DNA of 64,000 nt from Candidatus Latescibacterota bacterium (GTDB lineage: Bacteria > Latescibacterota > UBA2968). The notes beneath the pieces are model-generated. The model was not told where the DNA came from and ran no database searches. It saw only the letters and a list, made by a program, of their open reading frames with translations. Location: contig OZ244847.1 of the NCBI GenBank assembly GCA_965220765.1, positions 640,646-704,645 of the forward strand. The letters are read 5' to 3'. Made by a program: the position numbers and the translations under genes. Numbering within the stretch: position 1 is the stretch's first letter; every line of letters starts with the position of its first letter. This document shows, in pieces, positions 7,526-64,000 of this stretch.

Positions 7526-10500
7526 TCAGCGATCAGTTTTCCATTCATAATCAATGGTCGCACATAAGGTCTCGATTTCGCCGTTGGCAATGTGAAGGTG
7601 AATTGCGTTTTGTATTTCGCACGGGTCGCCTGTAGAAAGATCATAAATAAAGCCTTTTGTGTAATCCTCGCGGGATACGAGTCCTCGGATAAAGGAGGTG
7701 TCGCCTACTTCTACGCGGACTTTGTTTTTTTTTATGGGCGATATGTCGGTGATGGTGTAACAGGCGTCCCGGATGCCGTCGTTTAAGATGCGTAGATGTG
7801 CGCCGATGAGGCGTTTGTCTGCGGGGAGATGGCCTTCTATTTCGACCCAGGCTGGGCCGGTTTCTTCGCGGTGAAAGTTCGTTATGGTGCCGAGGTGCGT
7901 TGGGGTGCTGATCCGCAGGGTTCCAGAGGGGGTGTTTACGTGGGTTCCGCCGACTATAAAGATGGATGTTTGTCCGTTGTCCCGGGATATGATTGCAAAT
8001 CGCCCTGCGGCTGCGATGTTTTCGTTCAGGTCGAATACGCGGTTCGGGTCGTCGGATGATAGTATCCAATCTGTTCGGCCTGTTCTGGTTGTTACCCTTA
8101 TAGCTGCTGCTGTCAGATCGTCTGGTTCTGTACCGAGGTCAATGCGGGTGGCGTCTGTTATATGAGCTTGGTTCTCTCGGTAAGGTTCTATGATGGAGGC
8201 AAAGAGGCTTTGCTCTGAGCCGGAGTTGTGTAATAGTACGTAGCGGATGCGCCGGGGGTTGCCGGGTTTATTTTGCGGGGGATCGCCCCATGATAGGGCC
8301 GCGTCTTCTACGTTGGATAGTACGCGGTAGTGCAGGTGCAGGGGTGTTTCACCGTGCTGAGTTTTCCAGGTGTCTGCGAGTTCCCAGTCTGCCCACCATC
8401 CGGCTGCGGGGTTCTCGGCGCGGTGAACGCCGTAGAGGTAGGCGAAACCACTGCCGCGGTAGCGTCCGTCATTGGGTCCGTCGTAGTGCTTGCCGAAGGG
8501 GATGGTTTCGCCCGCATACGTTCCTTTTTCTTGTGGGGTGAGGTCGATTCCGCGGGTGGTGACGTGGCCTTCTCCGGCGTGGAAACTCATGACGTGGTCG
8601 TTGCCGCCAGCTATGCGGAAGACGTCGATGAGGTAAGATTCGGTGGGCGATGTGTCGATCATTGCGAGGGTGCGCCGATAGTCCTGTACGTCGGGATAGA
8701 CTTCGGGGGATGCGATTTCGACGACGCCTATGCCCTGTGAGGCGGCAAAATATTGGCAGTGTCCTATCCAGTTCACTTCCTGTTGCTGCTGGTTTACCAT
8801 TACTGTGTTATGCGAGATGGTATTTGTTGTCCAGCCCGCTCGTTTGGGCCATTTGCTGTCGGCGTATTCGGGGTATCCCAGATCGGGCAATACGTCCATT
8901 CCGCGGTAGTACATGCCAAAGTTCAACCGGTCTTTGTGGCCGTGTCCTCCGTTGCGTCCGTAATATAACCAGGCCGCCCGCTGGTCTTCTCCTTTGCCAT
9001 GCCGGAATACGGTTAGTCCGTATCCGTTCAGGTTTTCGCTTTTTAGTTCTATTTCGCCGTGTTGTTTTACGATGTCGAGGACGGTTTTCTGGATTGCTTC
9101 GGGTTCGGTGTCGAAGATGGAGGTGTGTAGTCCGTCGGTGCTGTTTCCGTTGAGTTTGTACGCGAGGCGCGCGAGGTCGGTGTCGCCGAGCCGGGCGAAG
9201 GCGCTGATGACGGTTTCGAGATCTACGTTGACCATGCCTTCGCCTCCGGTGTTGCCGGTGTCGCCGATGTGAGGGGTGTAGCGGTCCAGTGCGGTGAGGC
9301 GATAGGGCGCGCCGTACATGCGTTTGAGGCGGGGATAGTCGCGGTATAGATCGAAATCTCGATATTTGTGACACCGATCCAGTATCCAGGCACAGCGGGC
9401 AAATGCGTTCATCCAGCCGAAGCAATAGCCGGGTGCTGCTTCGTTGCCAACGCCGTCTCGATCCACTTCTCCGATCAGGGTTGCCGGGATGTGTCCCCCA
9501 CCGGTGCCACGGGATCCTCCGGGTTCAAAGAGCCAGTCGAGTGCTTCGGGCGTTTCCTGTGGGTCGTCCAGTACTGCCGCCGCAGTGGCCATTGCGGTTT
9601 GGGTCATGCCTTCGTTGCCGCGGATGCGCCGGTCTCGACAGGAGCGTATGAATTCTCGCAGGAGTCCGCGTTCGATGTTTTCGCGGATGTGGGCAATGCT
9701 CGTTTTGGGGTGTCTGATCTGCCATTTTTCCGCTTGTGCGGATAGGAATTTGACGAGTTCACCGTCGTGTTCTATTCCTTTGGAGATCATGTCGCAGGAT
9801 AGGGATAGGGTTTCTGCCATACCATTTTCCCATATACAGCCTTTGATGCGGCCCATGCCCGTGCCGCCGTGGGAGTTGTAGAGGCCCAGGTCTGAATAGG
9901 GGGTTAAGTCCATGTCGGGATAGACGTCTGCTATGCGGTTGAGGATGATGGCGCCTTTGTGGGCATAAGCGGTGTCGCCCGTGTAGAGATACGCTTTGCC
10001 CAGGGCGAGTGCCGCTGCTGGCAATTCGGTCCAGGTGCAATAATGGCTGTAGTAGGCGATGAACCACCAGCGGTTTCCCATATCGTCGATCCAGCCCATG
10101 CCGTCATCTACTGCGAATTGGAGATCATTGGGGTGTTCGGCGTTGTATAGCAGGGATTCATCGGCGAGTTTGCGATCGAAGATACCACCGGGTCCCAGGC
10201 CGCTTTTGTAAAATGCCTCGAAGTCATTTTTGGGCCAGATTTGTCCGCACGACGGACATTCGAGTTTATAGGGGCGGTGCAGCGATACTTTCCAGGGGTA
10301 GTTGCCGAATGCATAGACGTCTCGGCCGCATTCGGGACAGCCGAGGTCGGGGTTGACGTGGATGCCGCGGGGGATGGTTTGTCCCGTGATCAGGTCCCAG
10401 ATTTCCTCGTCGCTTCGCGCCATATAGGGCGCACAGGTTTCGATTGCGGCGTCTCGCTCGGCTCTCGCCCAGGCGTAGCGTTGGATATTTCGCCGGGCAT

Positions 10501-15255: not shown

Positions 15256-16407
15256 TCATGCATTCTTCAGGGCATTTACCGCTTCAATCAGTCGCCGATC
15301 GGCTTTGTAGCGCAATTCTAAGATCGCGTCTATATCCGATAGTGCGTTCGACTGAGCCTGTAGTCGGCACACGTCAATGCGGTCTGACAGGGCATTCATC
15401 ACCACGTCGAGCAACATCAAATCTGTGACATCGTCGGCAACCATACACTCATCGGCCAGAACTTTGCGGATCATTTCCAGGGGCTTTTTGAGCCTTTCAG
15501 CGTCCGGGATGGATTCACTATTTCCATTGTTGACCAGTTCGGGCGACAAGCTGCCGAGAAAACCTTCACTGATGAATTGCCGCGTTTTGTCTTCGGTCCA
15601 CGATTGCGCCAAAATTTGTGTCAATTTGTTCGATGGTTGTTCGGGTTTCTTTTCTCGACTGCGACTGCTGCGATCGCTGCTGCGCTTTGAAGGCCGCTGT
15701 TTGTTCTGGTCGCTCTGATTGCGTCCTTTGGGCGGGCGAGATACTTTGCGCGTGTCTTTTTGCACATTGCGAGTATCTTCTTTTTTTGGTTCATCCCGCT
15801 GGGCCTGAGCAGGTGTTTCGGTTCGCGCTGGTTCTGCTGATGCTTGAACGGTTTTTTCCTCTGTGTCCGCGTTTTGCTGTCGCGTGGGTTGAACAGGTGT
15901 GCTTACACCGGCGCGATCTTCCCAGCCAATTGGAGCTGATCGCCTTGTCCGACGCCCCCATTGCATTTCTTCTGTTTGCACATCCTGGGGCGTTTGTGTT
16001 TGCGCGGTTTCTGCTTCTTTTCGATTCTGTTCGGCGGAAGCCTTTGCCTGGACCTTTTCCCTGCGCCGTCTGGATGGCGGCGATGAGATCACTGTGCGCT
16101 CTTCCTGTGCAGCAGGCATTTCAGCCTTTTTCGCAGGTTTTTTGGCCTGTTTTACAGGTTTTTTGGCTGTTTTTTTAGTTGCCTGCTTTTTGGCTGTTTT
16201 TTTAGATGGCTGCTTTTTCGCAGGCTTTTTGGATGACCGCTTTTTTGATACACGCGGTGTAGAAGATCTGGTGCTCGTTTTCTTAGCTGGCTTTTTGGCT
16301 GTTTTTTTAGTTGCCTGCTTTTTGGACGGGCGTTTTGCTTTTTTTGCTGTGGATGTTGCGCCTTCAGTTTCCCGAGGTTCATCGGTCTGTGATTTCGTTT
16401 TTGCCAT
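15256..16407 (-). CDS. Lys/Ala-rich histone-H1-like (KKxAKK-repeat) protein with conserved C-terminal helical domain
   Basis: 383 aa. N-terminal 100 aa is a tandem AKKTAKKPAKK repeat, then a low-complexity acidic/polar linker, then an ordered C-terminal domain of about 100 aa (LKKPLEMIRKVLADECMV...). Confidence 0.55.
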   Translation of the reverse strand: MAKTKSQTDEPRETEGATSTAKKAKRPSKKQATKKTAKKPAKKTSTRSSTPRVSKKRSSKKPAKKQPSKKTAKKQATKKTAKKPVKQAKKPAKKAEMPAAQEERTVISSPPSRRRREKVQAKASAEQNRKEAETAQTQTPQDVQTEEMQWGRRTRRSAPIGWEDRAGVSTPVQPTRQQNADTEEKTVQASAEPARTETPAQAQRDEPKKEDTRNVQKDTRKVSRPPKGRNQSDQNKQRPSKRSSDRSSRSREKKPEQPSNKLTQILAQSWTEDKTRQFISEGFLGSLSPELVNNGNSESIPDAERLKKPLEMIRKVLADECMVADDVTDLMLLDVVMNALSDRIDVCRLQAQSNALSDIDAILELRYKADRRLIEAVNALKNA

Positions 16408-51238: not shown

Positions 51239-51310
51239 CTCATTTGGGATTTATTGACGTTGGTGAGTGGTCATACGATGTATTTCACCACGAACAGAAT
51301 TGATTAATCC

Positions 51311-51385
51311 CACATTCCCATAAACTTGAGCTTTGAACTGCTGCCTACCGCCGACACGCGACTTGCCAGGGTCTGTCAGTGGATT
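51311..51385 (+). repeat. repeat module copy 1 (5'-truncated)
   Basis: cacattccca-taaacttgagctttgaactgctg-cctaccgccgacacgcgacttgccagggtctgtcagtgg, shared with copies at 54.2, 60.0 and 63.4 kb. Confidence 0.8.
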
Positions 51386-51400
51386 TTGTCTGGGAATACT

Positions 51401-51871
51401 TTACGAAAGTCCCACACTTCTTCGAGAAGAAAAAAGAAAATGGTCGAGAGAAACAGGTGTAGATTTGAAAAAAAACAAAAAATAACAGCAGAGTAAGAAG
51501 ACCAAATCCTGGAGCAACGCGACATACAAACTGGTTTCATTGAACCCAAAACAACCACAGGCGATGTCTGCACCGCGGAGAATATTAATGCCCACTGCTG
51601 CTGCAAATATTAAAAAAAGACCAAAGCTACTGAGCACAGCACTCTTGTGCCACAAACCGAGAAATAAAAATAAACCTGTCACAAGCTCAATCCAGGGCAA
51701 GAAGATCCCCCATAGCACGACCAATCCCTCAGGGAGCAAATTGTAGGCTTTAACAATTTTAATAAATGCTTCGGGATTACGGATTTTTACAATTCCAGCC
51801 CACCCCAGAATAACTCCCAGAAATATCCTGGCCACGGTTCCTGCCCATGCTATTTTGGGAGATAGAATCAT
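51401..51871 (-). CDS. MauE/DoxX-family membrane protein
   Basis: 156 aa, 4 transmembrane helices. Conserved CGCFG pair of cysteines typical of MauE-like proteins. Overlaps the rhodanese gene by 4 bp. Confidence 0.6.
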   Translation of the reverse strand: MILSPKIAWAGTVARIFLGVILGWAGIVKIRNPEAFIKIVKAYNLLPEGLVVLWGIFLPWIELVTGLFLFLGLWHKSAVLSSFGLFLIFAAAVGINILRGADIACGCFGFNETSLYVALLQDLVFLLCCYFLFFFKSTPVSLDHFLFSSRRSVGLS

Positions 51872-52362
51872 CTGTCAAAACCAGTTTGAATCGGATTTAC
51901 TCCCTTTACCCATTCCTCCCATCCGCCTTCAAAAACTTGAACATGTATAAATCCAAATTTCCTTTTTAGAGATCTCGCCAATTCGACACTGGTATTACAA
52001 TTTATGCCAGAACAATAGACAATTATTGGGGTCTCGCGGGCGACATCAGCCAAAAGCTGCTTGGAGAAATAATCGTGCTGAATATACGGTATGTTCACTG
52101 CCCCTAAAATATGGCCTTTTTGATAGGCAGATTCAGAACGTCCATCAATGAGTAATATTTTTGATTTCGATTGAATTATATTTCGAAGCACCTCTAAAGA
52201 GAGATATGTTATATCACCTTTTTGTTGAGAGGTTTCAGCTTCACTCAACAGAAGCTGCTCGCTAAAAATGACAGTATAAATCAATCCTGCGCCTATTCCC
52301 AAAATTTGGATGACCAATGCACGCAAGAGGACTAACTTATAATTGTAGAATCCCACACTCAC
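51868..52362 (-). CDS. membrane-anchored rhodanese-domain protein
   Basis: 164 aa. N-terminal transmembrane helix. ..IIVYCSGINCNTS active-site Cys loop. Confidence 0.8.
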   Translation of the reverse strand: MSVGFYNYKLVLLRALVIQILGIGAGLIYTVIFSEQLLLSEAETSQQKGDITYLSLEVLRNIIQSKSKILLIDGRSESAYQKGHILGAVNIPYIQHDYFSKQLLADVARETPIIVYCSGINCNTSVELARSLKRKFGFIHVQVFEGGWEEWVKGVNPIQTGFDR

Positions 52363-52374
52363 CGGCTGCGTTCC

Positions 52375-54144
52375 TTATGCGATAAGTTGCTTGCGAAAAA
52401 GATGCCAATAGTGTCCTTTCCTCTTCACCAACTCGCCATGGAGTCCTTGCTCAACCACTCTGCCCCCATCCAAACAAATAACCTCATCTACCTGCTGGAT
52501 GGTGCTGAGTCTGTGGCTAATCACAATCAGGGTCTTATCTTCATATAGATCCTGTAAATTTGCTATAATTTTACCTTCGCTTTCAGAATCCAGTGCCGAT
52601 GTTGCTTCGTCAAGGATCAGAATATCCGAGTTTTTCAAAATTGCACGCGCAATCGCAATACGTTGTCTTTGACCAGCCGAAAGCGTGTTACCACGATCAC
52701 CGATAAGCGTAAGCACCCCATCTTCAGACTTCTCAATAAATCCATCCAAACCAGTTAGCCTGATCGCTTGATTGACCTCTTCGGGTGTACTTTTGGGCTT
52801 GCTGTACCGGATATTGTTCCAGATCGTATCATGAAAAACTTGATTTTCCTGGGTTACCAGACCAATATGCTCTCTCAGATCATACAGCTTGATATTGGTA
52901 ATCGGTGTGTGATCAATCGCAATCTCACCTGTATCGGATTCGTAAAAGCGACACAGCAAATTGACTAATGAACTCTTGCCACAACCGCTTGACCCCACCA
53001 GAGCATATTTTTTCCCTTTCTCAAGTCTTAAACTGAAGTCCTGCAAAACGGGTTGTCCGTTATATCCGAAATTGAGGTTGGTAAACGCAATCTCCTTTTG
53101 AAAAGAAAACGGACTGGTGGCAGACCCATCTGCTGTTTTCTGAATATCAATCTCGAGAAACTCGAATACCCGCTTCATTGAAACAGATACACGGACGAGT
53201 TCTACATAAAGCTGATTGAGATTTCTAAATGGTTCAAAAAGACGCGACAGGTACTGCAAAAAAGCAACCAATGCCCCCAGGCTCATGGCCCCCAACATGA
53301 CTTTATGGCCTCCCCATCCCAAAATGAGTGCCGGAGTCAATGACGTTAACAATCTCGAAATCGATCTCATCGCTCCAGAGTAGGTTACATTTTGCATACT
53401 GATATCCATGAGACCATTTAGCTGTGACCGCAGTCTATTATTTTCATAATTATAGGCATTATAGACTTGAATCAATTGGATAGACTCGAATCGCTCAATC
53501 AAATAGCTCATGACTTCAGAGCCTTTCTTTCGCCCGCGTTCCGTAATATCTCTTATTTTGGGCTGGAAGTAGCGAATATTGAGTGCCAGAAAGGGTATGA
53601 CAATAATAGAAACCAAAAATAGCTGCCAGTTTAACCAGCACAGAGCCACAGTAAGCCCTATGAGTGTCAGCAAGCTATGTATAAGACTCAAAGCACTTGA
53701 AGTAATAAACGACTGTATCCGATCCACTTCGTTGCTCATTCGATAGACCACATCTCCAGATTTATTGCGATCATAAAAGCTCAATGGCAACTGGATCAAG
53801 TGATCAAAAAGATGGCTTCTTATATCCAGCATAATGCGATTGTTTATATAGGCAAATAAATAGTTTGAACAAAAACTAATGATGATATTCCCTACCGTAA
53901 CACCCAATAGCAGAAGTAAAATCCATATCAATAGTTCATAGTCTTCGTTTGGAAACACGTCATCAATGATAATTTTCATGATATAAGGGAAGGCCAGCGA
54001 GCTAATAGTCCCTAAAATCATGAGCACGAAAACAACGCTTTGATGTATCCAATAAGGTTTCAGAAATTTTAAAAAATGATAAAAGACATGTCTCTGCTTA
54101 GAGAGACTGAAAATGGCGGATATGACTTGTTGTTTGTCCTTCAT
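52375..54144 (-). CDS. ABC exporter, fused permease/ATP-binding protein (ABCB-type half transporter)
   Basis: 590 aa from MKDKQQ. 6-transmembrane-helix domain, then Walker A GSSGCGKSS, signature LSAGQRQR and Walker B ILILDEATSALD. The longer ORF to 54354 reads through the repeat element and is rejected as the start. Confidence 0.9.
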   Translation of the reverse strand: MKDKQQVISAIFSLSKQRHVFYHFLKFLKPYWIHQSVVFVLMILGTISSLAFPYIMKIIIDDVFPNEDYELLIWILLLLLGVTVGNIIISFCSNYLFAYINNRIMLDIRSHLFDHLIQLPLSFYDRNKSGDVVYRMSNEVDRIQSFITSSALSLIHSLLTLIGLTVALCWLNWQLFLVSIIVIPFLALNIRYFQPKIRDITERGRKKGSEVMSYLIERFESIQLIQVYNAYNYENNRLRSQLNGLMDISMQNVTYSGAMRSISRLLTSLTPALILGWGGHKVMLGAMSLGALVAFLQYLSRLFEPFRNLNQLYVELVRVSVSMKRVFEFLEIDIQKTADGSATSPFSFQKEIAFTNLNFGYNGQPVLQDFSLRLEKGKKYALVGSSGCGKSSLVNLLCRFYESDTGEIAIDHTPITNIKLYDLREHIGLVTQENQVFHDTIWNNIRYSKPKSTPEEVNQAIRLTGLDGFIEKSEDGVLTLIGDRGNTLSAGQRQRIAIARAILKNSDILILDEATSALDSESEGKIIANLQDLYEDKTLIVISHRLSTIQQVDEVICLDGGRVVEQGLHGELVKRKGHYWHLFRKQLIA

Positions 54145-54192
54145 ATTCACCCGTGATGTAAGCAACTTAAAGTGTGCGTGTGGAATAAGACA

Positions 54193-54368
54193 CACCTTAC
54201 TCGATAAGCTCAAGTAAACTATTCTCTCAAGCTCACATTCCCAAATGCTTGAACTTTGAACTGCTGCCTGCCCGCGCCGTCGCCTGTCCGCATGCAGGTG
54301 TTCCGCACAGGCAGGCACGGCAGGCAGGTCTGCCGCCGACATTCGACTTGCCAAGGTCTGTCGGCAAC
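54193..54368 (+). repeat. repeat module copy 2 (with a roughly 60-bp GC-rich insertion)
   Basis: ccttactcgataagctcaagtaaa...ctcaagctcacattcccaaatgcttgaactttgaactgctg-[60-bp insert]-ctgccgccgacattcgacttgccaaggtctgtcggcaac. Confidence 0.8.
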
Positions 54369-54407
54369 TTCGTTATACAGAAACGCTCGAATACGACTTG
54401 ACTTTCT

Positions 54408-55514
54408 TCACTGTCCGGTAGAGGCTCCTTGGGGTTCAGTTAGACGATAGACACGAATCCTGCCATTGGTATCTTCGCCATCCTCAGGAGGCGAATACGC
54501 ATATATAGAATTCCCATGGCAAGTAAAAATATTGTACCCCAATTCATTCTTCACTTCCTGTGCATAAGGCTGCACATCCAAATCCGATAAAAGTATAAGT
54601 GCAGTACTCATTGATAAATCCTCAAAAGTGTACCTGAGCAAAATATCTCCCGAAGACAAGATATGCATGCCGTACAACCTGCTGAACCTATGTTGGGATA
54701 ATTGTCTTATATCTTTGCTATCATCTACTTCATCTAACTTGAGACTGACAAATTTGGGATGATTTGTGACTATGGGTGTAAGAAACTCCTGTGCTGTCAA
54801 ATCAATTCGCATAACTTTATCTTCCCAAGGCAGCGCAAAGTATATGATTTTTCGCACTTCGTCATAAGCAAGCCCTTGGTAACGCTGCAAACCAAAAAAT
54901 AGTTTTCCGTATTGTGTATCGCAGACCTTGAACTTTGCGAGGTCGTCACCAGTGTCAAGGGAAGTGACGCAAAGCATACCGTTTTTGTTTTTATCTACAT
55001 AAGTATGAATGAGATTATGACCATCGGAAACCGCCAAGCGATTAATAAAGCGTCTCTCAGATAGCTCTACTTTCCCTACAAATTCACCTTTGAGTGAAAA
55101 TCGAAGCGTCTGTCCGGTTCCTCCATCGTAGATTAGTATTTGGTCGGTATTGGGGATAGTCGTTGGGTGAGTCGGTATCTTGTACTGGCCTTCTCCTTCC
55201 CCCCGACTGCCAATAGACCGCTTATAGCTTCCCTCTCTGCCAAAAACTTCGACACTTTTTCTCATAGTATCTAAAATAATGATGTAGTCCTCCACAACCA
55301 CAATAGATCCGACACGCCCGAGAAACGGTCCCGCCTCTGGGTGTTCGAGGGTAATAACATCAATCAATGCGATCTGGGGGGGGGGGCCTTGTGTTTGCAC
55401 CTTAGGGACGACCCTATCGAGCTGGTTTTCAACAGTACTTTTTTCGCAACTTCCAAAAATAAGAAAGAGGAGTGTCAGCCACCTCGCGGAAACCAATAAC
55501 TTTTTTTTATTCAT
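54408..55514 (-). CDS. beta-propeller lipoprotein (6-bladed-propeller-like) carrying a 12-nt homopolymeric tract
   Basis: 368 aa. Lipobox LIFGSC. Repeated blade-like segments. A G12 run on the plus strand at 55376-55387 encodes the PPP of ..QGPPPQIA... Confidence 0.5.
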   Translation of the reverse strand: MNKKKLLVSARWLTLLFLIFGSCEKSTVENQLDRVVPKVQTQGPPPQIALIDVITLEHPEAGPFLGRVGSIVVVEDYIIILDTMRKSVEVFGREGSYKRSIGSRGEGEGQYKIPTHPTTIPNTDQILIYDGGTGQTLRFSLKGEFVGKVELSERRFINRLAVSDGHNLIHTYVDKNKNGMLCVTSLDTGDDLAKFKVCDTQYGKLFFGLQRYQGLAYDEVRKIIYFALPWEDKVMRIDLTAQEFLTPIVTNHPKFVSLKLDEVDDSKDIRQLSQHRFSRLYGMHILSSGDILLRYTFEDLSMSTALILLSDLDVQPYAQEVKNELGYNIFTCHGNSIYAYSPPEDGEDTNGRIRVYRLTEPQGASTGQ

Positions 55515-55540
55515 CGGTTTTAATCCTTTTCTATTTGGGC

Positions 55541-56498
55541 TCGATATTCCTGAGAAGTTGTTTTAAAAATGGATCGTTTAATCGAGTCTGTTGAGTAAGA
55601 GGTAAATCATAACAATGTGAATAAAGGCTTCACTATTGTCAGTCAAGTCTTCATAATCCTTTGACAGACGGCGAAAATTTAATAACCAAGCAAAGGTGCG
55701 CTCAACGACCCAACGGCGCTTGGCGACCTGGAAGCCCTCACCTTTAGGCTTAACAACCTCAAGATCAATTTTATACGTGCGCTTCCTATCAGCGACCCAT
55801 TCCTTGAGGTCATCGCCGCGATAGCCGCCATCAACCCACAGCTTGCGTAAGCGTGTTGTTCCTTGCTCAAAATACTGATTCAGCAGATGCTTGAGGCCGT
55901 CACGATCTTGGAGATTGGCAGGCGAGACAAAGGCGTTGATCACCAGGCCGAGGGTATCGACAAACAGGTGGCGTTTGCGTCCATTGACCTTTTTGCCAGC
56001 ATCGTAACCTTTTGAGTCTTTTTGTGTTGCACTCTTGACACTTTGACTGTCAATGCAGCCTGCTGATGCGGTAGCTTTGCGTCCTTGTCGTTTTCTCTCT
56101 TTTCGTGTGAGTGCTTGTTGCATACGCTCAAAGACACTTTGCTCGCGCCACTTATTGAAATAGCCATACACGGTTTGCCAGCAGCCAAAGGTATGAGGCA
56201 ACATGCGCCATTGGCAGCCCGTCTTCGTCAGATACAGGATGCCATCAAACACGTTCCGCAAATTGACAGGGGGACGTCCACGGCTACCTTTTCGCCATTT
56301 GCGCTTGGGCAGGAGTGGGATGAGCAGTTGCCATTGCGCTTCGGTTACATTTGTCGGATATTGCCGGTGCGTATTCATCGCAGGTCCTTTCGTTTCAGGG
56401 TGATATGCACTACCTGAATTTGGACAGATGAATACGCTTTTTCAACGCTTTTTTTCTTCTTTCATAATTTTAAAACAGCTTCTGAGGATTTACCGAGA
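55541..56498. mobile_element. IS5-family insertion sequence (about 0.96 kb) with about 25-30-bp imperfect terminal inverted repeats
   Basis: Left end tcgatattcctgagaagttgttttaaaaatgg. Right end reverse-complement tcggtaaatcctcagaagctgttttaaaattatg. Single transposase ORF inside. Confidence 0.75.
55578..56378 (-). CDS. IS5-family DDE transposase
   Basis: 266 aa. DDE_Tnp_1-like motifs CIDSQSV (D), FVDTLGL (D), VVERTFAWL (E). N-terminal helix-turn-helix. Confidence 0.85.
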   Translation of the reverse strand: MNTHRQYPTNVTEAQWQLLIPLLPKRKWRKGSRGRPPVNLRNVFDGILYLTKTGCQWRMLPHTFGCWQTVYGYFNKWREQSVFERMQQALTRKERKRQGRKATASAGCIDSQSVKSATQKDSKGYDAGKKVNGRKRHLFVDTLGLVINAFVSPANLQDRDGLKHLLNQYFEQGTTRLRKLWVDGGYRGDDLKEWVADRKRTYKIDLEVVKPKGEGFQVAKRRWVVERTFAWLLNFRRLSKDYEDLTDNSEAFIHIVMIYLLLNRLD

Positions 56499-56574
56499 AT
56501 ACCGAGCTAAACTGGAGTACATCAAGTGCGATAGCACATTTTTTACAACTCCTTGCACTTAAGTTGAGTTTACA

Positions 56575-59052
56575 TCAGTCCTCTTGAAGGGCATCTATTG
56601 GACTTTCAGAGGCGACCTTGAACGCATGTATGAAGCCACCTATCAGCGGAAGAAGAATGCCTAAGAAGATTGCTACCAAAATCGTGCCAACACCAAATTG
56701 AAAGCGGTAGGCAAATATTGAGAGCCATTCATCCATAAAGAAATAGGAGAGCGGAAGCATGATGATGGCGGCGATAAATCCAGGTACTGCGTAGTTCAGC
56801 ACAATCCCACTGGCTATTTTGGAGGGCACAGCCCCCATGACCCTTCGGATGACGATTTCCTTTCTTCTGCGTGCCACGGCGAGGGAGATCATGCCCAGGG
56901 CACCCATTGACGCGATCAGGACAGCACACAAAGTCGCGCCAGAGACGATCTTGCTCCAACTGATTTCTCGGGCATAAAAGTGTCGCCTGTCATCTTCTAC
57001 AAAGGAAAATGTCAGGTGATGCTCCGTTTTGAGGTCTTGCCATAGTTCCTTGAGAAACGCACTAAATGCTTTGGCATTGCCATCTTGAAGCCGAATCAAT
57101 ATTTCACGGTCTTGTCGCTTGGTTGTTGCACCATCTGGGACAATCGTGATGATAGTCGGTGGGACCTTGTGGTGTGAACTTTGGAAGCGAAAATCCTTGA
57201 CTATACCTACAATACGGCCACTGACATCGCGACCAAACACGGGTCTTCTGAACTTTGTATCCGCCTGCGTGATCACCTGTCCAAGAGGCTGTGGTGATGT
57301 CAGGTGTTTTTGCAAGGCTTCATTCACGATTACATCGCCCGGGATAGGATTTGGATGTAAGGCTCTTCCTTGTAAGAGTTGCAACCCGACGGTCTTCAGA
57401 AAAGGGCCATCTACCTGATAATAGTTTACATTATCAATGAGTTTGTTACCGCTGTCTTTGATTAGAGTTGAGTTTGACGAATTTAGAGACAGATTCGTCC
57501 GAACAGAGGATGTCACGAGAGGAGACGCTGATAAAGACGCTTGCAGACGATCAATCTCATTTTCTGTCAACCCACTGGTATTGAGTCTGACCAGGTTCGC
57601 GGGTTCAAACCCTGGATCTGCTGTGATGACGAAAAAGGTCTGTTCAAAGATAATGATCGTGCAAAATACAAACACCAATGTCACACCCGACTGTACAGCC
57701 ATCAGTACCTTCAAAAAAGGACCAGACCTGACGGCCTTTGAGGTTTTGCTCAAAACGCTGATGGCAGACACAGACGACATAAATGTCGCCGGGTAAATGG
57801 CTGTGACCAGACCTATTAGACAGGCAAGTGATAGGAAAATGATCGCGGTCTGAATAGGATCTACCGAAGACATAAAAGGGATCCGCAAAATGCCTTCAAT
57901 AGGACTTGAGGCCAACTCTGCGACTGCCAGACTTATGATGCAGGCCAAAATGCTGTATCCAAAGCATTCGGCCAATAGCTGGTATCTGAGTTGCCGTCGG
58001 TTCGCGCCAAAGATTTGCCTGATGCCCAATTCTTTTGTACGCGAGTTGAACCGCGCTACATAAAGAAGCACGTAATTCAAACACGCGATAAACAGAACCA
58101 ATATACTGATACCGGCGAGAATATATCCATATAAGGGATTTGTTTTGCGAAACATACCATCAACAAATAGACCGATATAATGGTGCAGGTCTGTGAGGGA
58201 TTGCAATTTGGCCTGAAAGGTCTCTAAGTCCCATATTGAGTTGATAGAGGACTGCTTCTGCATGAACGTAGTGAGCTTTCTGTCCATTTCTTCCACATTT
58301 GATCTGTCTGCCAAACGGATGTAATGTGTGGATTCAAAGCCCCAGTCCCATTGTCCTTCTTCATTATCGAGAAAGGTCGTGGACATACTCAAGGGCAAAA
58401 GAATCTCGAAATATAAGCTCGAATTACGTGGAGGAGCCACGATGCCCCCGATTTCAACAGGGGCTACTACGGGTTTTATATCTCTCAAAAATCTGCGAGA
58501 AGCAACTCGCATCCATAACACTTTGCCTATCAAGTTGTCAATATCGTTGGTAAGCGTCTGAGCAAATCTACGTGTGATCACGACTTGCCCAGGGCGAGAG
58601 AAGAATGTACCGCGAATAAGGGGGAAGGAAAACATCTCTTCAAAACTTCTATCGACGAACAAGACATGTTGGATAGGTCGCAAAAACTCTTTGTGAGTAC
58701 CTACCTGGCAGGTCGCTGTCCCAATGACACTCTTTACACGGGTTGTATGCTCAATCTCAGGAAATTCAGCAGCCACCATGGAGGATAGTGCAACAGGAAA
58801 ACTGGCGGTCTCTGTCCATGTGCCCGCCAACGGTGTCCCTCTTATTGTTTTTTCATACTTGACCTTTCCGACAACGCAGTATATGCGATGATGGTCTTTG
58901 TGGAATCTATCAAAGCTCCAATCGTACAGGAAGTAAAGCACGCAGAGATAGCAGCAGGCAATTCCTATCCCCAAACCCAGCAGATTAATGGCTGCATACG
59001 TTTTATACTTGAGGATATTGCGAAACCATGTTCGGAAGTAATTGGCAATCAT
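56575..59052 (-). CDS. FtsX-domain ABC-transporter permease (MacB-like, two FtsX repeats)
   Basis: 825 aa. An N-terminal transmembrane helix, a large periplasmic domain and 3 transmembrane helices, repeated twice. No adjacent cognate ATPase gene. Confidence 0.8.
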   Translation of the reverse strand: MIANYFRTWFRNILKYKTYAAINLLGLGIGIACCYLCVLYFLYDWSFDRFHKDHHRIYCVVGKVKYEKTIRGTPLAGTWTETASFPVALSSMVAAEFPEIEHTTRVKSVIGTATCQVGTHKEFLRPIQHVLFVDRSFEEMFSFPLIRGTFFSRPGQVVITRRFAQTLTNDIDNLIGKVLWMRVASRRFLRDIKPVVAPVEIGGIVAPPRNSSLYFEILLPLSMSTTFLDNEEGQWDWGFESTHYIRLADRSNVEEMDRKLTTFMQKQSSINSIWDLETFQAKLQSLTDLHHYIGLFVDGMFRKTNPLYGYILAGISILVLFIACLNYVLLYVARFNSRTKELGIRQIFGANRRQLRYQLLAECFGYSILACIISLAVAELASSPIEGILRIPFMSSVDPIQTAIIFLSLACLIGLVTAIYPATFMSSVSAISVLSKTSKAVRSGPFLKVLMAVQSGVTLVFVFCTIIIFEQTFFVITADPGFEPANLVRLNTSGLTENEIDRLQASLSASPLVTSSVRTNLSLNSSNSTLIKDSGNKLIDNVNYYQVDGPFLKTVGLQLLQGRALHPNPIPGDVIVNEALQKHLTSPQPLGQVITQADTKFRRPVFGRDVSGRIVGIVKDFRFQSSHHKVPPTIITIVPDGATTKRQDREILIRLQDGNAKAFSAFLKELWQDLKTEHHLTFSFVEDDRRHFYAREISWSKIVSGATLCAVLIASMGALGMISLAVARRRKEIVIRRVMGAVPSKIASGIVLNYAVPGFIAAIIMLPLSYFFMDEWLSIFAYRFQFGVGTILVAIFLGILLPLIGGFIHAFKVASESPIDALQED

Positions 59053-59666
59053 CGGTCATCCATATTTTGTTAATAGCGGTGTGGATAAAAAACCGTGCCA
59101 TAGTCGGTAACCTTCGCTACTCAAATAATCACACATTTTCCCTGTCTTGGATGTTATGAGGAAGAGTGTTGAAGTTTTTGACAGCGTAAAATCAGTGTTA
59201 TCGGTAAATAGGCCGATAACACGAGGTTGTGCCTATATTAGTTGAAATAGTAGAGGTCCCAATGTAAATTGGATACAGCAGTTTCAACCGTGAAAACGCT
59301 ATATCCTCAACCAAAGGGGCCCGTAATCTGCCTGTGCGTTGCACGCAGACAGGTGAATAAAATATCGCACAAGCCCCCAAAGTCAAATCCACAAAGACGA
59401 TGCAACGCCACAAACACCCCCTGAAGAAGAACTGGACACACTGAATACACGCATCGCGCCAAGCCTTGATCCCAATAGGATTAGATGCCGTGGCAGAAGA
59501 ATTACAGCAGGAAGTGACCCGCTTAGCCGGGGACAGATATGGACTTGACCCGATAACACCGAACTAAATTTGAGCCTACCAAGAGGGTTGCACACTTTGC
59601 TTTTTTAAAGGGGCATATAGAAATGCTCTATTTTAATGAACTATCTCAAGTGAGACAATCATTGTA

Positions 59667-59900
59667 TCAGCATGGTCCCCAAGTTTTTCTCGTACTATAT
59701 GCCTCCTCTGATCTACATTCGTAATAAGGAAAATACTCCCGGCACTCATAGTAAGTGGTTATGGTCACACACCTAACCGGATCTCCAACAGTCTCTCTTA
59801 TACGACCCGTCTCAATCCAGATACCCCAGTCGTGCCACTCATATCCATAAATACGTGGAGAAGACAGCGGAGACTTCTCAGGCTTGGTCAAGATCTTCAT
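59667..59900 (-). CDS. small Cys/aromatic-rich peptide (candidate precursor peptide)
   Basis: 77 aa. Strong RBS AAAGGAAAGGAGGTG 7 nt before the ATG. Four Cys. Internal YYEC..YYEC repeat. Repeat module copy 3 lies immediately upstream. Confidence 0.45.
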   Translation of the reverse strand: MKILTKPEKSPLSSPRIYGYEWHDWGIWIETGRIRETVGDPVRCVTITTYYECREYFPYYECRSEEAYSTRKTWGPC

Positions 59901-59946
59901 AATATCACCTCCTTTCCTTTTGGGTCAAGTAAAAGTGTGCTTGCCC

Positions 59947-60085
59947 TTACTTGATAGGCTCAAGTTCAAGTAAAACCATTCTCTCCCGCTCACATTTTCC
60001 AAATGTTTGAGCTTTGAACTGCTGTGGTAACCCGCCCTTGGGAGCTACCGCCGACACTTGACTTGCCATGGTATGTCGGCGGCTA
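59947..60085 (+). repeat. repeat module copy 3
   Basis: cttacttgataggctcaagttcaagtaaaaccattctctcccgctcacattttccaaatgtttgagctttgaactgctg-tggtaacccgcccttgggagcta-ccgccgacacttgacttgccatggtatgtcggcgg. Confidence 0.8.
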
Positions 60086-60128
60086 TTATATCAACACTTT
60101 TGCCATGGCTACATCTTGTTCATAAATA

Positions 60129-60851
60129 TCAATAAACAAATGTAGATAAAGGATCTATCTCAAATTTCTTGGCAATAATTCGAGAATAGGGCACCCCTTT
60201 AAGATGACCGTTTAGAAGTGGTTTTTGTAAACGCAAATGTTTTTGAATCACACCAAAAAAGAGGACTGTGTTTTGAGGGCGGTCTTTTGAAGGCAAATGA
60301 CAATGCGTTATGATATTCTTTTCATTGACAACAAAGACCGCTGGCGTGCGATGGGTGAGTACTTTATTCTGGAATAGCATGTTCTCAGTATCCGAAAGCA
60401 ACTCGTAATGCAGATTAAAACTTCTTTTGTATCTTTTCAACACGCCCGCAGGAGCATTGGCAAACGCATAAATTGGAAAGCGTTTTTCGGGGTCCTGGCT
60501 CTGGTACACATGCTCCAGTAACTTTATCTGGGTGATTAGACAGGGCTGACAGTCTTGAGGCTTGAAGACGAGAACCAATCCTTTTCCTGTTTTAGAAAAA
60601 TCCGTTGAAATCCAATCGCCATTTATATTCTTCAATTTCAACTTCGGAAATTCTTGCCCTTGATAATTGGAGGCATAAGTAGAAGTGTTTATATGCTCCT
60701 TGTAATCAGCATTCTCTATTCGGAGACCTCTGATTTCTTCCCAACGACGAGCGTTCGTATTTCTCAACTTCCATACCCCAAATAACGCAACAAAAAGAAA
60801 AACAGATAGCAGGATATTTAAAATCAGCGATATTTTGCGAATTTCTTGCAT
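60129..60851 (-). CDS. membrane-anchored TlpA/ResA-like thiol-disulfide oxidoreductase (thioredoxin fold, CxxC)
   Basis: 240 aa. N-terminal transmembrane helix. VLVFKPQDCQPCLITQ active-site CQPC. Confidence 0.7.
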   Translation of the reverse strand: MQEIRKISLILNILLSVFLFVALFGVWKLRNTNARRWEEIRGLRIENADYKEHINTSTYASNYQGQEFPKLKLKNINGDWISTDFSKTGKGLVLVFKPQDCQPCLITQIKLLEHVYQSQDPEKRFPIYAFANAPAGVLKRYKRSFNLHYELLSDTENMLFQNKVLTHRTPAVFVVNEKNIITHCHLPSKDRPQNTVLFFGVIQKHLRLQKPLLNGHLKGVPYSRIIAKKFEIDPLSTFVY

Positions 60852-60882
60852 TTACTTTCTCCGCATCGTTAAGGTATTGATC

Positions 60883-62799
60883 TCAAAAAAAATCAACAAC
60901 AACATCGGCCATCTTTTTTTGTCCTTCTACGCTGATTATCTCAGTGGCTGGAAGGCCCTGCGTTGATTCTATGCGCGATGTGATTTGGCAAATTTCCGCT
61001 TTAGAGAGCGGCTGGTTGACGACTGTATTAACCGTGTCATTAACAATTTTTTTCTTATCACTAAAAACGAGCAGAATAACTTTTCCTTTTCCCAGGCCCT
61101 CTAACACGCGGATATTTTCCTGTATAAATTCAGGCTCGTCGATAGAATTAACGAGCAGGATATAGGCATCGGGAACGGTTCCAAAGAGCAAGATCAATGA
61201 GGGCAACGTATAACTCTGAGATTTTTCGTAAAAGCTATGAGGTATGATACCGGACTGACCACCAACAATGATGATATCCGGGTCTGAGTGTTCAATGCCG
61301 ACCATAGCGGAATTTAGAAGTGGAATGTGTAAATCTATGGGAATTTGGATGCTCTGATGCCCGTCATATCCATTTGGAAATGTAAAATCGAAATCAAATA
61401 ATGCAGATTGGTGTTCTGTACCCAATTGACCCACTTTATAGCCAATTTTCTGTAATTGTTTTCTCAGTGCCAATTGTGCAGTGAACTTGCCTTGTTGCGG
61501 TCCTGTCCCAAACACGCCCACGACAGGTTTCTGGCTTCTGTTTCTCCAATCATAAGTTTTGGTCAAAGCCTCATAAGTTGCAAAATCAATGGTCGGTGCT
61601 GCACAATGTAGATATTTTTCTTCAAATGCTTTACTTATGCTTTCGTATTGCTTATTTGCAATGGGGCTCAGACTGTAAACATTCTTGTTATGCTTCAATG
61701 CCAGTTTTAGAGATTCTTGTAACACATCGCGTTTCTTAATCCGGCTAATTTCATCCAAATAGCCCAAAACGAGCGTATCGCCGTATTGCAGACAGTCTTC
61801 CAAATTTTGTTGTATGATGAGATCAGATTCGACCCCACCAATAACCTCCCCACAATCTTTGCCTATGGTTCTTTTTCCAACAACGTCAACTACCCTTGCA
61901 ATTCTAAACGGCAATAACTCCTGAAACCGCACCAGCCCATGCATTTCTTTGTTATAGGGGAAAATCACAGCCTTTTCTATCCAGTCTGGCGTATTATTTG
62001 CCTTATTTAGGTCTCGGATAGAAACGTCTGAGCGAGACCTGGGCATTTCGCTCATTGCATAAGCACTGCTATCTACCAACTCGGGACATTGACTTAAGGA
62101 GTGCATCTGCAAAATTTCTGTCAGATCGTTGAAAGTTATGCCATCATATTTCTCTATGATCAGAGCAATCAAGCCAGAAACATGCGGAGCCGCAAAACTC
62201 GATCCGCCCATAAATATCTGTTTGCCTACCAGCCAATCGAGGCGTTGACGATCACCTCGTGCGACAAACTGTATTTTTTCGTGCGGGTCAAAAAAGTAAT
62301 CAAATTTTCCACTCACTTTTCCTCCTGCTACGCCAAAAACATTGGGAAAAGACGCGGGAATACTCGGTTGTCCATCATTTGATGTCGCCGCAACAATGAA
62401 CGTCTGGTGTTTGTGTGCAAAATCACAGGCCTCCTTCAAAATATCGATATTCCTCTCATCCAGAGTGCCTAAACTCAAATTGATAATGTGACAGTGATGT
62501 TCAACACACCAGTAAATCGCCTTGCACAAAATGTCCATTGTCGCTATCAGCTCTGATTCAAAAATTTTGACAGGCAAAAATTCTACATTGGGAGCCTTAG
62601 AGTGGATGACGCCAATACATGCTGTACCGTGGCCTATCATATCCTTGTAATTTGAATCCTGACCGCCATTGCAGAAACTGGTACCATTCAACACATGTAC
62701 ATCTTTGTGGCCGACGTTAAAACCGCTATCAATGACGCCGATCCGAGTCCCAGTACCTGTCAGCCCTGAAAAAAAATGCGCCATCAAAAAACCTTTCAA
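60883..62799 (-). CDS. intracellular S8 subtilisin-like serine peptidase fused to a roughly 400-aa C-terminal domain (possible CoA-binding/Rossmann-like region)
   Basis: 638 aa. Catalytic triad contexts GVIDSGF (D), HGTACIG (H), GGSSFAAPHVSG (S). No signal peptide. C-terminal half contains VVGVFGTGPQQGKFTAQLAL, which is SucD/CoA-binding-like. Confidence 0.8.
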   Translation of the reverse strand: MKGFLMAHFFSGLTGTGTRIGVIDSGFNVGHKDVHVLNGTSFCNGGQDSNYKDMIGHGTACIGVIHSKAPNVEFLPVKIFESELIATMDILCKAIYWCVEHHCHIINLSLGTLDERNIDILKEACDFAHKHQTFIVAATSNDGQPSIPASFPNVFGVAGGKVSGKFDYFFDPHEKIQFVARGDRQRLDWLVGKQIFMGGSSFAAPHVSGLIALIIEKYDGITFNDLTEILQMHSLSQCPELVDSSAYAMSEMPRSRSDVSIRDLNKANNTPDWIEKAVIFPYNKEMHGLVRFQELLPFRIARVVDVVGKRTIGKDCGEVIGGVESDLIIQQNLEDCLQYGDTLVLGYLDEISRIKKRDVLQESLKLALKHNKNVYSLSPIANKQYESISKAFEEKYLHCAAPTIDFATYEALTKTYDWRNRSQKPVVGVFGTGPQQGKFTAQLALRKQLQKIGYKVGQLGTEHQSALFDFDFTFPNGYDGHQSIQIPIDLHIPLLNSAMVGIEHSDPDIIIVGGQSGIIPHSFYEKSQSYTLPSLILLFGTVPDAYILLVNSIDEPEFIQENIRVLEGLGKGKVILLVFSDKKKIVNDTVNTVVNQPLSKAEICQITSRIESTQGLPATEIISVEGQKKMADVVVDFF

Positions 62800-62917
62800 T
62801 ACGCGATGTGTGACTTTAAAATCGCCACAGAATCATGCCGACAAACAGATATAAGAAAGTCAAAACTACTGGATTACTGGCATTGTGCCTTCGCGGCTAA
62901 CATCCTGCCGCAATGAC

Positions 62918-62937
62918 GGGCGAGGCATGCCTCGCCC
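62918..62937. other. perfect GC-rich palindrome downstream of the ACP-like gene
   Basis: gggcgagg-catg-cctcgccc. No adjacent U-tract on the minus strand. Confidence 0.4.
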
Positions 62938-62980
62938 CTACAATGGATAACTGACCACTGATTGCTTGTTTTTTTCACCA

Positions 62981-63280
62981 TTATTCTAAAGTCACACCTG
63001 ACGTCTTTCGATATGTTTCAGTGGTTAATTTCCCATATATATACTGCGCTACCGAACGTGTCGAAGTGAGCATGTCTTCTGTGAGTTCTTCGTCCTCTAC
63101 GACCACGTCAAATGTATCCTCTAAGCCTGTCACCAGGGCCAGGGTGGAAATAGAATCGAGTATAGAATTCAAAGGAAGATTACCCCAATCTACATCATCG
63201 GATGGGACTTCACGGTCTAATGCTCTCAGGACCAGACCTTGAATCTGATTCTCAATCTCAGCTATTGTATTTTCTGTCAT
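62981..63280 (-). CDS. acyl-carrier-protein-like small acidic protein
   Basis: 99 aa, acidic. LPLNSILDSISTLALVTGLE resembles the phosphopantetheine-attachment helix II (DSL..EL) of carrier proteins. Confidence 0.4.
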   Translation of the reverse strand: MTENTIAEIENQIQGLVLRALDREVPSDDVDWGNLPLNSILDSISTLALVTGLEDTFDVVVEDEELTEDMLTSTRSVAQYIYGKLTTETYRKTSGVTLE

Positions 63281-63334
63281 AAAATTTTATATCCGGTTAC
63301 ACGATAGTTGACATCCTATCCCTCAAAAGGTATC

Positions 63335-63426
63335 TTACCATCAAGCTCACATTCCCAAATGCTTGAGCTTTGAACTGCTGTCTGCCGCCGACACTCGACT
63401 TGCCAGGGTCTGTCGGCGGCTTTTTT
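63335..63426 (+). repeat. repeat module copy 4 (most compact; second hairpin followed by T6)
   Basis: cttaccatcaagctcacattcccaaatgcttgagctttgaactgctg-tctgccgccgacactcgacttgccagggtctgtcggcggc-tttttt. Confidence 0.8.
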
Positions 63427-63450
63427 GTGATGTATGTAATATAATTGCCC

Positions 63451-63990
63451 TTATAGTTTCAAGCCCGAAAGTTTGTCCTGACCTGCAAAATTTGTCCCAG
63501 ATTCTACTTTTTTGCGATATGTGGTCGGACTAACGCCATGCTTCTCTTTGAAAAACTTGCTAAAAGTCGATAAAGATGCAAATCCACACAGGTAAGCAAT
63601 TTCTGAAAGGGTATATGATGTGTTCTTCAACGCTTCCTCAGCCTTTGTTAGACGTACATTCCGAAGGCACATCCTGAACGGCATTCCCAGGTGCTTCTTA
63701 AACAATTTATATCCATAGCTTTCCGAGAACCTGAAATGACGTATGACATCTTTAAATTTCAGCTTTGGATTGCTGTAATTCGCCTCCAAAAATGATTCCA
63801 ACCAGATCTTCCACATATCTTGTGGAGGCATATATTTTTTGATCTTCGCCAAAAACACATCTCTCTTGATGGGTTTATCAAATACACTGACAGCACCGGC
63901 CTTGATCAGTTGCTCGCCCAATTCTGCGGATTGCAAATCTGTCATGACCAGCATAGCGGTCTGTATTTTCTCCGCCTTCACACGCTTCAA
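63451..63990 (-). CDS. AraC-family transcriptional regulator, probably with N-terminal receiver domain (5' end outside the window)
   Basis: C-terminal AraC helix-turn-helix (..SEIAYLCGFASLSTFSKFFKEKHGVSPTTYRK). Preceding ..IKAGAVSVFDKPIKRDVFLAKI resembles the end of a REC domain. The ORF runs to the window edge. Confidence 0.8.
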   Translation of the reverse strand: MKRVKAEKIQTAMLVMTDLQSAELGEQLIKAGAVSVFDKPIKRDVFLAKIKKYMPPQDMWKIWLESFLEANYSNPKLKFKDVIRHFRFSESYGYKLFKKHLGMPFRMCLRNVRLTKAEEALKNTSYTLSEIAYLCGFASLSTFSKFFKEKHGVSPTTYRKKVESGTNFAGQDKLSGLKL

Positions 63991-64000
63991 TAGGGTTATT

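Follow-up and report, generated by a model that had tools for sequence, protein, structure and literature searches.

What kind of element is a two-hairpin sequence that recurs four times, always in the same orientation, within a single bacterial gene cluster? The question is raised by a 64-kb stretch of a Candidatus Latescibacterota genome (GenBank assembly GCA_965220765.1, contig OZ244847.1, positions 640,646 to 704,645; the window hereafter), in which plus-strand copies of the element lie at 51303-51391, 54193-54368, 59946-60085 and 63335-63427 (copies 1 to 4). An earlier note on this DNA had taken the module for a promoter, operator or 5' untranslated region (UTR) cassette shared by the minus-strand genes that follow the copies, and had offered as an alternative that copy 4 is a hairpin-terminated small RNA (sRNA) of about 90 nt read from the plus strand. 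Our analysis brings that alternative to the fore: we consider it moderately probable that copy 4 is an intact, independently transcribed plus-strand sRNA gene of ~85 nt from which copies 1-3 were derived. We infer the transcription of copy 4, its ends and every functional statement made below from the sequence.

The repeat itself is real and non-random. Its 39-nt core is matched exactly by copy 4 and with one mismatch by copy 2, shuffled sequence returned no matches, and a hidden Markov model (HMM) profile built from the two-hairpin element found no match in the window besides the four copies, so the number and common orientation first reported hold. The second hairpin, GCCGCCGACA-N17-TGTCGGCGGC, had been described for the module as a whole; it is intact in copy 4 and nearly intact in copy 3, whereas its 3' arm has become TGTCGGCaac in copy 2 and TGTCaGtGG in copy 1. 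Every copy is indeed intergenic, and the flanking genes all lie on the minus strand, so that the copies are antisense to their neighbours. The parts of the candidate sRNA gene at copy 4 are as follows:

63308 to 63336, plus strand: copy-4 promoter from the consensus scan, with -35 TTGACA (63308-63313), a 17-nt spacer and -10 TATCTT (63331-63336)
63340 to 63427, plus strand: copy 4, predicted ~85-nt RNA, with hairpin 1 at 63341-63373 and a single-stranded linker at 63374-63383
63384 to 63426, plus strand: 3' end of copy 4 from sequence and predicted fold, with a terminator hairpin at 63384-63420 and a T6 run at 63421-63426

The sigma-70-type promoter TTGACA-17-TATCTT would start a plus-strand RNA near 63340-63343, and this RNA would fold (predicted at -34.3 kcal/mol, z = -4.2) into a 5' hairpin, an open linker of ~10 nt and a long GC-rich terminator hairpin of 10+5 bp before ending at the T6 run. 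The gene would run divergently from the ACP-like/S8-protease operon and convergently with the REC-AraC gene. Promoters were sought by a consensus scan of the window, alongside which a simple terminator scanner was used; the latter missed the copy-4 terminator because its apical part is longer than the scanner's loop limit. The longest open reading frame (ORF) in the unit spans four codons (ATG-CTT-GAG-CTT-TGA). Rfam 15 gave no match at gathering thresholds in the window, and permissive scans, run on the region, on copy 4 by itself and on the fifth paralogue described below, returned only matches with E >= 0.6, at least 34 bits under the thresholds.

Comparison between genomes carries much of the argument. 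Using a 21-nt pattern to which all four window copies conform, we scanned one genome for each of 185,579 species, and enlarged the locus set through S8 protease homologues (88-93% identical) to ~45 copies in 17 loci. Over 80 transcribed positions in 15 orthologous copies, the mean pairwise identity of copy 4 is 0.974, as against 0.776 at our neutral proxy, the four-fold degenerate sites of the adjacent S8 protease gene in the same genomes (where the S8 protein is 90% identical). The -35 hexamer TTGACA is unchanged in 14 of the 15 orthologues, the -10 reads TATCTT, TACCTT or TATTTT, and a T-run is present in all of them (T5-T8 in copy 4 and fifth-paralogue copies). These parts also travel together. 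At locus L008 a radical-SAM gene replaces the ACP gene as divergent partner and the sequence 5' of the -35 is unrelated; the promoter is kept both there and at L030 despite unrelated DNA upstream of the -35. L030 also has copy 4 without an AraC gene nearby and with unchanged unit boundaries, and four kinds of 3' flank start directly after the copy-4 T-run. The stem variants fit a plus-strand RNA: four kinds give a G.U pair on the plus strand and one kind an A.C, and two U.G pairs of the inner terminator stem would be A.C mismatches on the other strand.

A fifth paralogue (c5) was found in three genomes (L011, L013 and L026), on the far side of the regulator gene and divergent from it. It has a promoter TTGACA-17-TAC(C/T)TT, a different 5' hairpin (CTCAAG/CTTGAG), a motif GCTTGAG..TTTG similar to that of copy 4, and the copy-4 terminator, in which a C-G pair has become U-A by compensatory change, with a T6 run after it; c5 would be a second intact sRNA paralogue in some genomes. 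Just 5' of its promoter lie a perfect palindrome, GTGAACATATTGTTCAC, and a half-site-like TTGAACATTATGT (L011 ~5480-5560, L026 ~8310-8390). Located between the c5 promoter and the divergent AraC-type gene, this arrangement may be an operator; it resembles GAAC-N-GTTC boxes but has 5-nt spacing.

Several features generally expected of an sRNA gene can be read from the sequence at copy 4: a promoter motif directly upstream, a Rho-independent terminator, conservation above neutral, and no coding capacity. It is because of the promoter, the terminator, the conservation, the unit boundaries, the fold and the matching layout of c5 that we predict copy 4 to be an independently transcribed sRNA. The alternative raised by the earlier note has in this way become the best-supported reading, with promoter, hairpins and T-run conserved and moving as a unit. 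The best explanation for the module as a whole appears to be a small, cluster-specific family of a known class, namely a multicopy sRNA family with degenerate paralogues. Qrr1-5 of Vibrio are a multicopy sRNA family, trans-encoded next to a response-regulator gene and transcribed from sigma-54 promoters. The likeness lies in RNAs of ~85-110 nt with their own promoter, a 5' hairpin, an open conserved stretch, a Rho-independent terminator, paralogues and a nearby response regulator. Unlike Qrr1-5, the element here has a sigma-70-like promoter and only one or two intact-looking copies, all in one biosynthetic cluster; the two have no sequence or Rfam relationship, and the element is known from sequence alone.

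The distribution of the element is narrow. The pattern scan returned 17 loci, nine of which hold the element (10 matches), the remaining eight being chance matches within coding DNA. Eight of the nine are in metagenome-assembled genomes (MAGs) of Ca. Latescibacterota, four of them complete chromosomes of 5.6-6.3 Mb, and each Latescibacterota genome, these chromosomes included, gives one or two matches to the pattern, very diverged copies being beyond its reach. The ninth (L010, VXYV01000024.1) comes from a sponge bin labelled Gammaproteobacteria and carries a Latescibacterota-type cluster with copy 4 at 87% protein identity; this contig is probably mis-binned. Nearly all true matches fall in the syntenic cluster, the exception being L008, where copy 4 lies between AraC and radical-SAM genes, so the wider search for copies that had been proposed as a check, made with this pattern, found them in the cluster only, plus L008. 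Across ~15 species the copies sit at orthologous intergenic places, always antisense to the genes, with three to five copies per genome in one cluster and one orientation. An HMM search of the more distant clusters L023-L025 (S8 protease ~55% identical) found no related element, and a metagenome scan with a relaxed hairpin-2 pattern returned five matches, all by chance in coding DNA. Since these clusters lack the element and the metagenome scan adds nothing, the element is specific to one clade and one gene cluster.

The other three copies in the window are degenerate:

51303 to 51391, plus strand: copy 1, with the 5' arm of hairpin 1 lost, the linker intact and the tail ATTTTG
54227 to 54368, plus strand: copy 2 core, with hairpin 1 (one C.A mismatch), the linker and a 62-nt GC-rich hairpin insertion at 54267-54328
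59984 to 60085, plus strand: copy 3 core, with a weakened hairpin 1, the linker with a 21-nt insertion at 60026-60046, and hairpin 2 at 60048-60082

We propose that copies 1-3 derive from the sRNA unit, with loss of its canonical promoter and of most of its T-run and with insertions gained in the linker. The T-run is replaced by ATTTTG in copy 1, by TTCGTTAT in copy 2 and by TATTTATAT in copy 3 (whose tail is listed as CTATTATATC). The consensus scan found no promoter match of at least four of six positions in both hexamers for any of the three; at the place homologous to the copy-4 promoter, copies 2 and 3 read CTTACT-16-AACCAT (three of six per hexamer), and some copy-1 orthologues keep TATTTT but lack a -35. 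Hairpin 2 of copy 1 (51348-51382) has two non-Watson-Crick positions, one a C.A mismatch and the other a G.U wobble, and the copy folds no better than shuffled sequence (z = 0.2). Copy 1 had been described as 5'-truncated; the 5' arm of hairpin 1 is indeed gone, but the copy is degenerate rather than cleanly truncated, and its orthologues in other genomes are full length. In copy 2, hairpin 2 (54332-54368) has a shortened 3' arm. The GC-rich insertions reported between the hairpins of copies 2 and 3 are real (54267-54328 and 60026-60046), and the linker has repeatedly received small GC-rich hairpin insertions, which differ between species and classes. Such palindromic insertions (e.g. GGCGAGGCATGCCTCGCC; CCTGCTTACCTCATGCAGAGG; ACCTACCCCTGGGGA) stand in AT-richer intergenic DNA at 54267-54328, 60026-60046 and 62919-62936 of the window; similar ones occur in the linkers of copies from L004, L012, L013, L027, L029, L031 and L032, and the motif GGCGAGGCATGCCTCGCC is found only once in the window.

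Rates of change differ among these copies. Within-class mean pairwise identity is 0.85 for copy 1, 0.88 for copy 2 and 0.80 for copy 3 (neutral proxy 0.78), and of 28 Watson-Crick pairs the three retain 17-24, close to the number expected if they had drifted from the copy-4 sequence without constraint. L016, L028, L029 and L030 cleanly lack the copy-3 core, L027 and L031 lack copy 2, and L032 has an additional copy before a second gene for a small peptide. With an identity near the neutral proxy and stem pairing as drift predicts, copy 3 has the look of a neutral relic. In copies 1 and 2 the stems are 0.82-0.85 identical, as against 0.94-0.96 for the unpaired positions of loops, bulges and linker (0.82 and 0.94 in copy 1), and variable sites number 6 of 48 unpaired versus 46 of 112 paired positions (p = 0.0004). 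Since their loop and linker bases stay under constraint, copies 1 and 2 probably still do something that depends on those bases. Copy 1 always lies ~10 nt after the stop codon of the MauE/DoxX gene, and the gene beyond it varies by species (DUF218, pectate-lyase-like or sulfotransferase); copy 2 is always 5' of the ABC exporter gene, whether a beta-propeller or an FtsX gene precedes.

Several observations weigh against reading copy 4 as an sRNA gene with decayed descendants. The promoter match by itself is not significant, with 33 promoter-like sites in the window versus 27 expected. Covariation is minimal as copy 4 is nearly invariant, a single compensatory pair separating copy 4 from c5. Simple decay leaves the loop and linker constraint of copies 1 and 2 unexplained. 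Gene conversion between copies is likely and blurs the rate comparisons: some linker insertions occur in more than one class of copy, pointing to gene conversion or to a mini-repeat family of their own, and copy 4 of L030 has a loop variant in common with copy 1. Finally, the region from the ACP start codon to the sRNA is conserved throughout, so promoter conservation may partly serve the divergent gene, for which a promoter can be read from the sequence:

63286 to 63314, minus strand: putative promoter of the ACP-like gene, with -35 ATGTCA, a 17-nt spacer, -10 TATAAA and 5 nt to the ATG at 63280

The -35 of this promoter is TTGTCA in most species and overlaps the plus-strand -35, and the orthologues keep the block CATAAAATTTTATATCCGGTTACACGATGGTTGACAACC; in most species the -35 is embedded in a palindrome, GGTTGACAACC, and the ACP gene has no Shine-Dalgarno (SD) sequence. 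The sRNA and the ACP operon may have back-to-back promoters with overlapping -35 boxes, and the ACP mRNA is putatively leaderless or near-leaderless.

Copies 1-3 could instead be targets of the sRNA. Copy 4 (and c5) would then regulate in trans, and the gene-strand copies 1-3, lying within cluster mRNAs (in the 3' UTR of the MauE operon and in the regions upstream of the exporter and peptide genes), would be regulated: loops and linkers, which are exactly complementary to those of the sRNA, would kiss, a duplex would form, and processing or decay would couple the cluster operons. We regard such a trans-antisense network as unlikely, though it is the strongest of the rival explanations. The conserved part of copies 1 and 2 is precisely the unpaired positions while the stems drift near the neutral rate, every copy is oriented as an antisense target would need to be, and copy 1 keeps its place at the MauE 3' end. 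Among the duplex partners that the window offers the sRNA, only the reverse-complemented copies are outliers (-75 to -118 kcal/mol versus a background of -25.6 +/- 7.2), and a duplex search for other trans targets at translation-initiation regions of the window found the next-best partners in the background tail. Counted per class, stem mismatches form G.U on the gene strand in 34 cases versus 16 on the plus strand, an asymmetry that four-fold sites do not have. Yet this ratio falls to 18:13, which is not significant, once identical changes across classes are merged. Stem transitions that leave a gene-strand G.U (G>A and T>C in plus notation) number 38 versus 18 of the opposite kind, and the strand asymmetry relative to non-stem sites (Fisher p = 0.005) is a comparison confounded by base composition; many of the asymmetric changes are seen in several of the classes and could reflect inheritance or gene conversion. 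Further against targets are the stem pairing of copies 1-3, which is about the neutral-decay expectation, the neutrality and frequent deletion of copy 3, and the likely siting of the promoters for peptide and exporter on the gene side of the core, which would leave the core to be transcribed by read-through only; the core also lies at least 65 nt from the ribosome-binding sites.

Loop-loop kissing is the mode of antisense control in CopA/CopT of R1 and RNAI/RNAII of ColE1, each cis-encoded at one plasmid locus. If copies 1-3 are transcribed on the gene strand, they would likewise present mirror-image stem-loops with complementary loops, and in copies 1 and 2 it is the loop bases that are conserved. 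Unlike the partners in those systems, the putative targets here are dispersed, diverged chromosomal duplicates of the regulator gene. An sRNA regulon built by duplicating the sRNA gene, in which the conserved loops of diverged antisense copies kiss the sRNA and tie together the regulator, maturase, precursor-peptide and exporter operons, is a tentative proposal and in our judgement a rather improbable one.

The cassette favoured by the earlier note, in which the whole module acts on the gene strand as a shared promoter, operator or 5'-UTR cassette or as a cis-regulatory RNA leader, possibly under REC-AraC control, fares worse still, and we think it quite improbable for the module as a whole. 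What it does fit is a separate 5' extension, which copies 2 and 3 had been said to share together with a GCACACTTT box; both exist:

59926 to 59979, no strand assigned: copy-3 extension, with the palindrome TTACTTGA-N5-TCAAGT(TCAAGT)AA at 59947-59973 and the conserved AAAACCAT
59926 to 59940, minus strand: copy-3 box GCACACTTTTACTTG, upstream of the SD sequence and ATG of the 77-aa peptide gene
54163 to 54226, no strand assigned: copy-2 extension, with a small hairpin GTGTG..CACAC and the palindrome TTACTCGA-N5-TCAAGTAA at 54197-54217, the ABC exporter ATG being at 54144
54163 to 54177, minus strand: copy-2 box GCACACTTTAAGTTG, upstream of the ABC exporter

The extension is made up of an imperfect palindrome (TTACTTGA-N5-TCAAGTAA) and a block AAAACCATTCTCTC, followed towards the gene by a small hairpin, which varies, and by the GCACACTTT..TTG box. 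In all species examined its occurrence is limited to the DNA preceding the peptide and exporter genes, with which it moves (the exporter upstream region of L027 lacks it), and it lies 45-70 nt before their start codons. In L027 both palindrome arms have changed in concert, to TTACTCGA/TCGAGTAA; the palindrome of other species is imperfect, and a DNA operator and an RNA hairpin are indistinguishable there. The extension is kept as a unit in the four species in which the two-hairpin core is deleted. Because of this independence from the core and its distance from the start codons, the extension is most likely a separate promoter or operator element of the peptide and exporter genes. We also considered a sigma-54 promoter at the GCACACTTT..TTG box and rejected it, since on direct reading the spacing is wrong.

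For the core itself the cassette does poorly. All four copies are upstream of start codons in the window, as had been claimed, but copy 1 goes with the MauE 3' end and not with the start codon of DUF218, with unrelated genes following it by species, and copy 4 has a conserved promoter and terminator on the opposite strand. What comes after hairpin 2 on the gene strand is AGACAGCAG and no U-run, so we also rejected a gene-strand terminator, and nothing pairs with the SD sequence. A riboswitch or 5' leader is equally ill served, with the core 65-85 nt from the SD sequence and a promoter-like extension between core and gene. No Rfam family matches, and the covariation analysis that had been suggested for the hairpins yielded no clear covariation in favour of a gene-strand leader, the mismatch ratio of 34:16 weakening to 18:13 as described above and the one compensatory pair being that between copy 4 and c5. 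The promoter or operator claim fits the extension of copies 2 and 3 but is not supported for the core, which has no U-tract, stands at least 65 nt from the ribosome-binding sites and shows no clear gene-strand covariation.

A selfish or accidental REP/MITE-like repeat without function, with a merely fortuitous resemblance of copy 4 to a promoter and terminator, is very unlikely. It would account for the clean-edged presence and absence of the core (L016, L028-30, L027, L031), for half copies and AraC fragments that adjoin copies and point to rearrangement, and for the other small GC-rich hairpins inserted in the linker. Against it, the element has three to five copies per genome in a single cluster and a single orientation, and copy 4 is 97% conserved, versus 78% for neutral sites, at orthologous positions in ~15 species. 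We found no terminal inverted repeats (the ends TCAAGCTCAC... and ...GTCGGCGGCTTTTTT are not inverted repeats) and no target-site duplication flanking the empty site in L016. The Correia/CREE elements of Neisseria and ERIC, BOX and REP/BIME repeats have terminal inverted repeats and number tens to hundreds across a genome, in both orientations. They resemble the element here as ~100-nt intergenic repeats with hairpin potential whose presence varies between relatives, some with promoter or terminator activity; they differ from it in copy number, orientation, confinement to one cluster and terminal repeats. The REP/MITE reading fails because copy number, distribution and orientation do not fit, and the earlier view that this is no generic repeat is upheld by matches confined in our collection to Latescibacterota-type loci, nearly all in the orthologous cluster. 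We likewise rejected an integron attC array, there being no GTTRRRY core sites at the element ends and no integrase; the only recombinase-type gene found is an IS4/5 transposase, and the genes form a conserved, functionally coherent cluster.

DNA-level operators, in which blocks CACATTCCCA, TTGAACTGCTGTCT and ACTCGACTTGCCAGGGTCTGTC would be bound by a cluster regulator such as REC-AraC and the hairpin potential would be incidental, would suit the block-wise conservation of copies 1 and 2 independent of stem integrity and the adjacent regulator gene of many genomes, but they are highly improbable given that the conserved positions are the unpaired positions of the RNA fold, that copy 4 also keeps its stems, T-run and promoter, and that conservation is independent of which regulator gene, if any, adjoins.

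The candidate sRNA gene and its paralogues are set in the following order of genes, read along the minus strand:

Minus strand, first part: REC-AraC (cut by the window end), copy 4, ACP-like, S8 protease-TIGR04066/DUF1611 fusion, redoxin, copy 3
Minus strand, second part: 77-aa Cys-rich peptide, FtsX/MacB-type permease, IS4/5 transposase, six-bladed beta-propeller, copy 2
Minus strand, third part: ABC exporter, rhodanese, MauE/DoxX, copy 1, DUF218
59667 to 59900, minus strand: 77-aa Cys-rich peptide gene, downstream of copy 3, whose translation carries a YGYE motif
63451 to 64000, minus strand: REC-AraC response-regulator gene (3' part), running convergently with copy 4, with 24 nt between its stop codon and the T-run end

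The S8 protease is QhpE-like, and its fused TIGR04066/DUF1611 domain is a 'peptide maturation' domain. A related small peptide ORF (MKTLTKK...YGYDF...) is found in the distant cluster L023 (17910-18382). Given this similar gene, the 77-aa peptide is the probable precursor of a ribosomally synthesized and post-translationally modified peptide (RiPP), and the genes (window 56575-62799, plus the peptide gene at 59667-59900) look like a RiPP pathway not described before; neither this gene cluster nor the RNA turned up in literature searches. The IS4/5-family transposase gene (DDE_Tnp_1, DUF4096; 55578-56378) lies between the FtsX and beta-propeller genes, a site at which none was seen in the related loci examined; the FtsX and beta-propeller genes themselves stand in inverted order between species groups. 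Elsewhere in the window, at 16126-16350, a repeat search found a tandem array of ~27-nt T-rich units (CTTTTTGGCTGTTTTTTTAG...), in which one minus-strand frame has stops.

The surroundings of copy 4 have been rearranged repeatedly. Copy 4 is equally conserved beside a 38%-identical AraC paralogue, beside AraC fragments or with no AraC gene nearby. Terminator-only half copies adjoin the 3' end of AraC in L027 (5466-5520), L028 (6734-6791) and L031 (5257-5316), where three genes of UDP-sugar metabolism are inserted between the AraC and ACP genes, and in L006, L007, L010, L016 and L027 a piece of the AraC gene, corresponding to the window from ~63613 on, comes after a full copy 4. On account of these half copies, gene fragments and changing neighbours, the comparison of loci indicates that the element is a frequent, recurrent rearrangement breakpoint.

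Regulatory RNAs of the Latescibacterota, a phylum known here from MAGs only, are almost undescribed, and little is known of how their peptide natural-product clusters are controlled. A candidate RNA of ~85 nt that is 97% conserved and has clear ends offers a handle for heterologous expression of the cluster and for metatranscriptome mining. If the degenerate copies are its targets, the cluster would be a clear case of an sRNA-target network born from duplication of the regulator gene.

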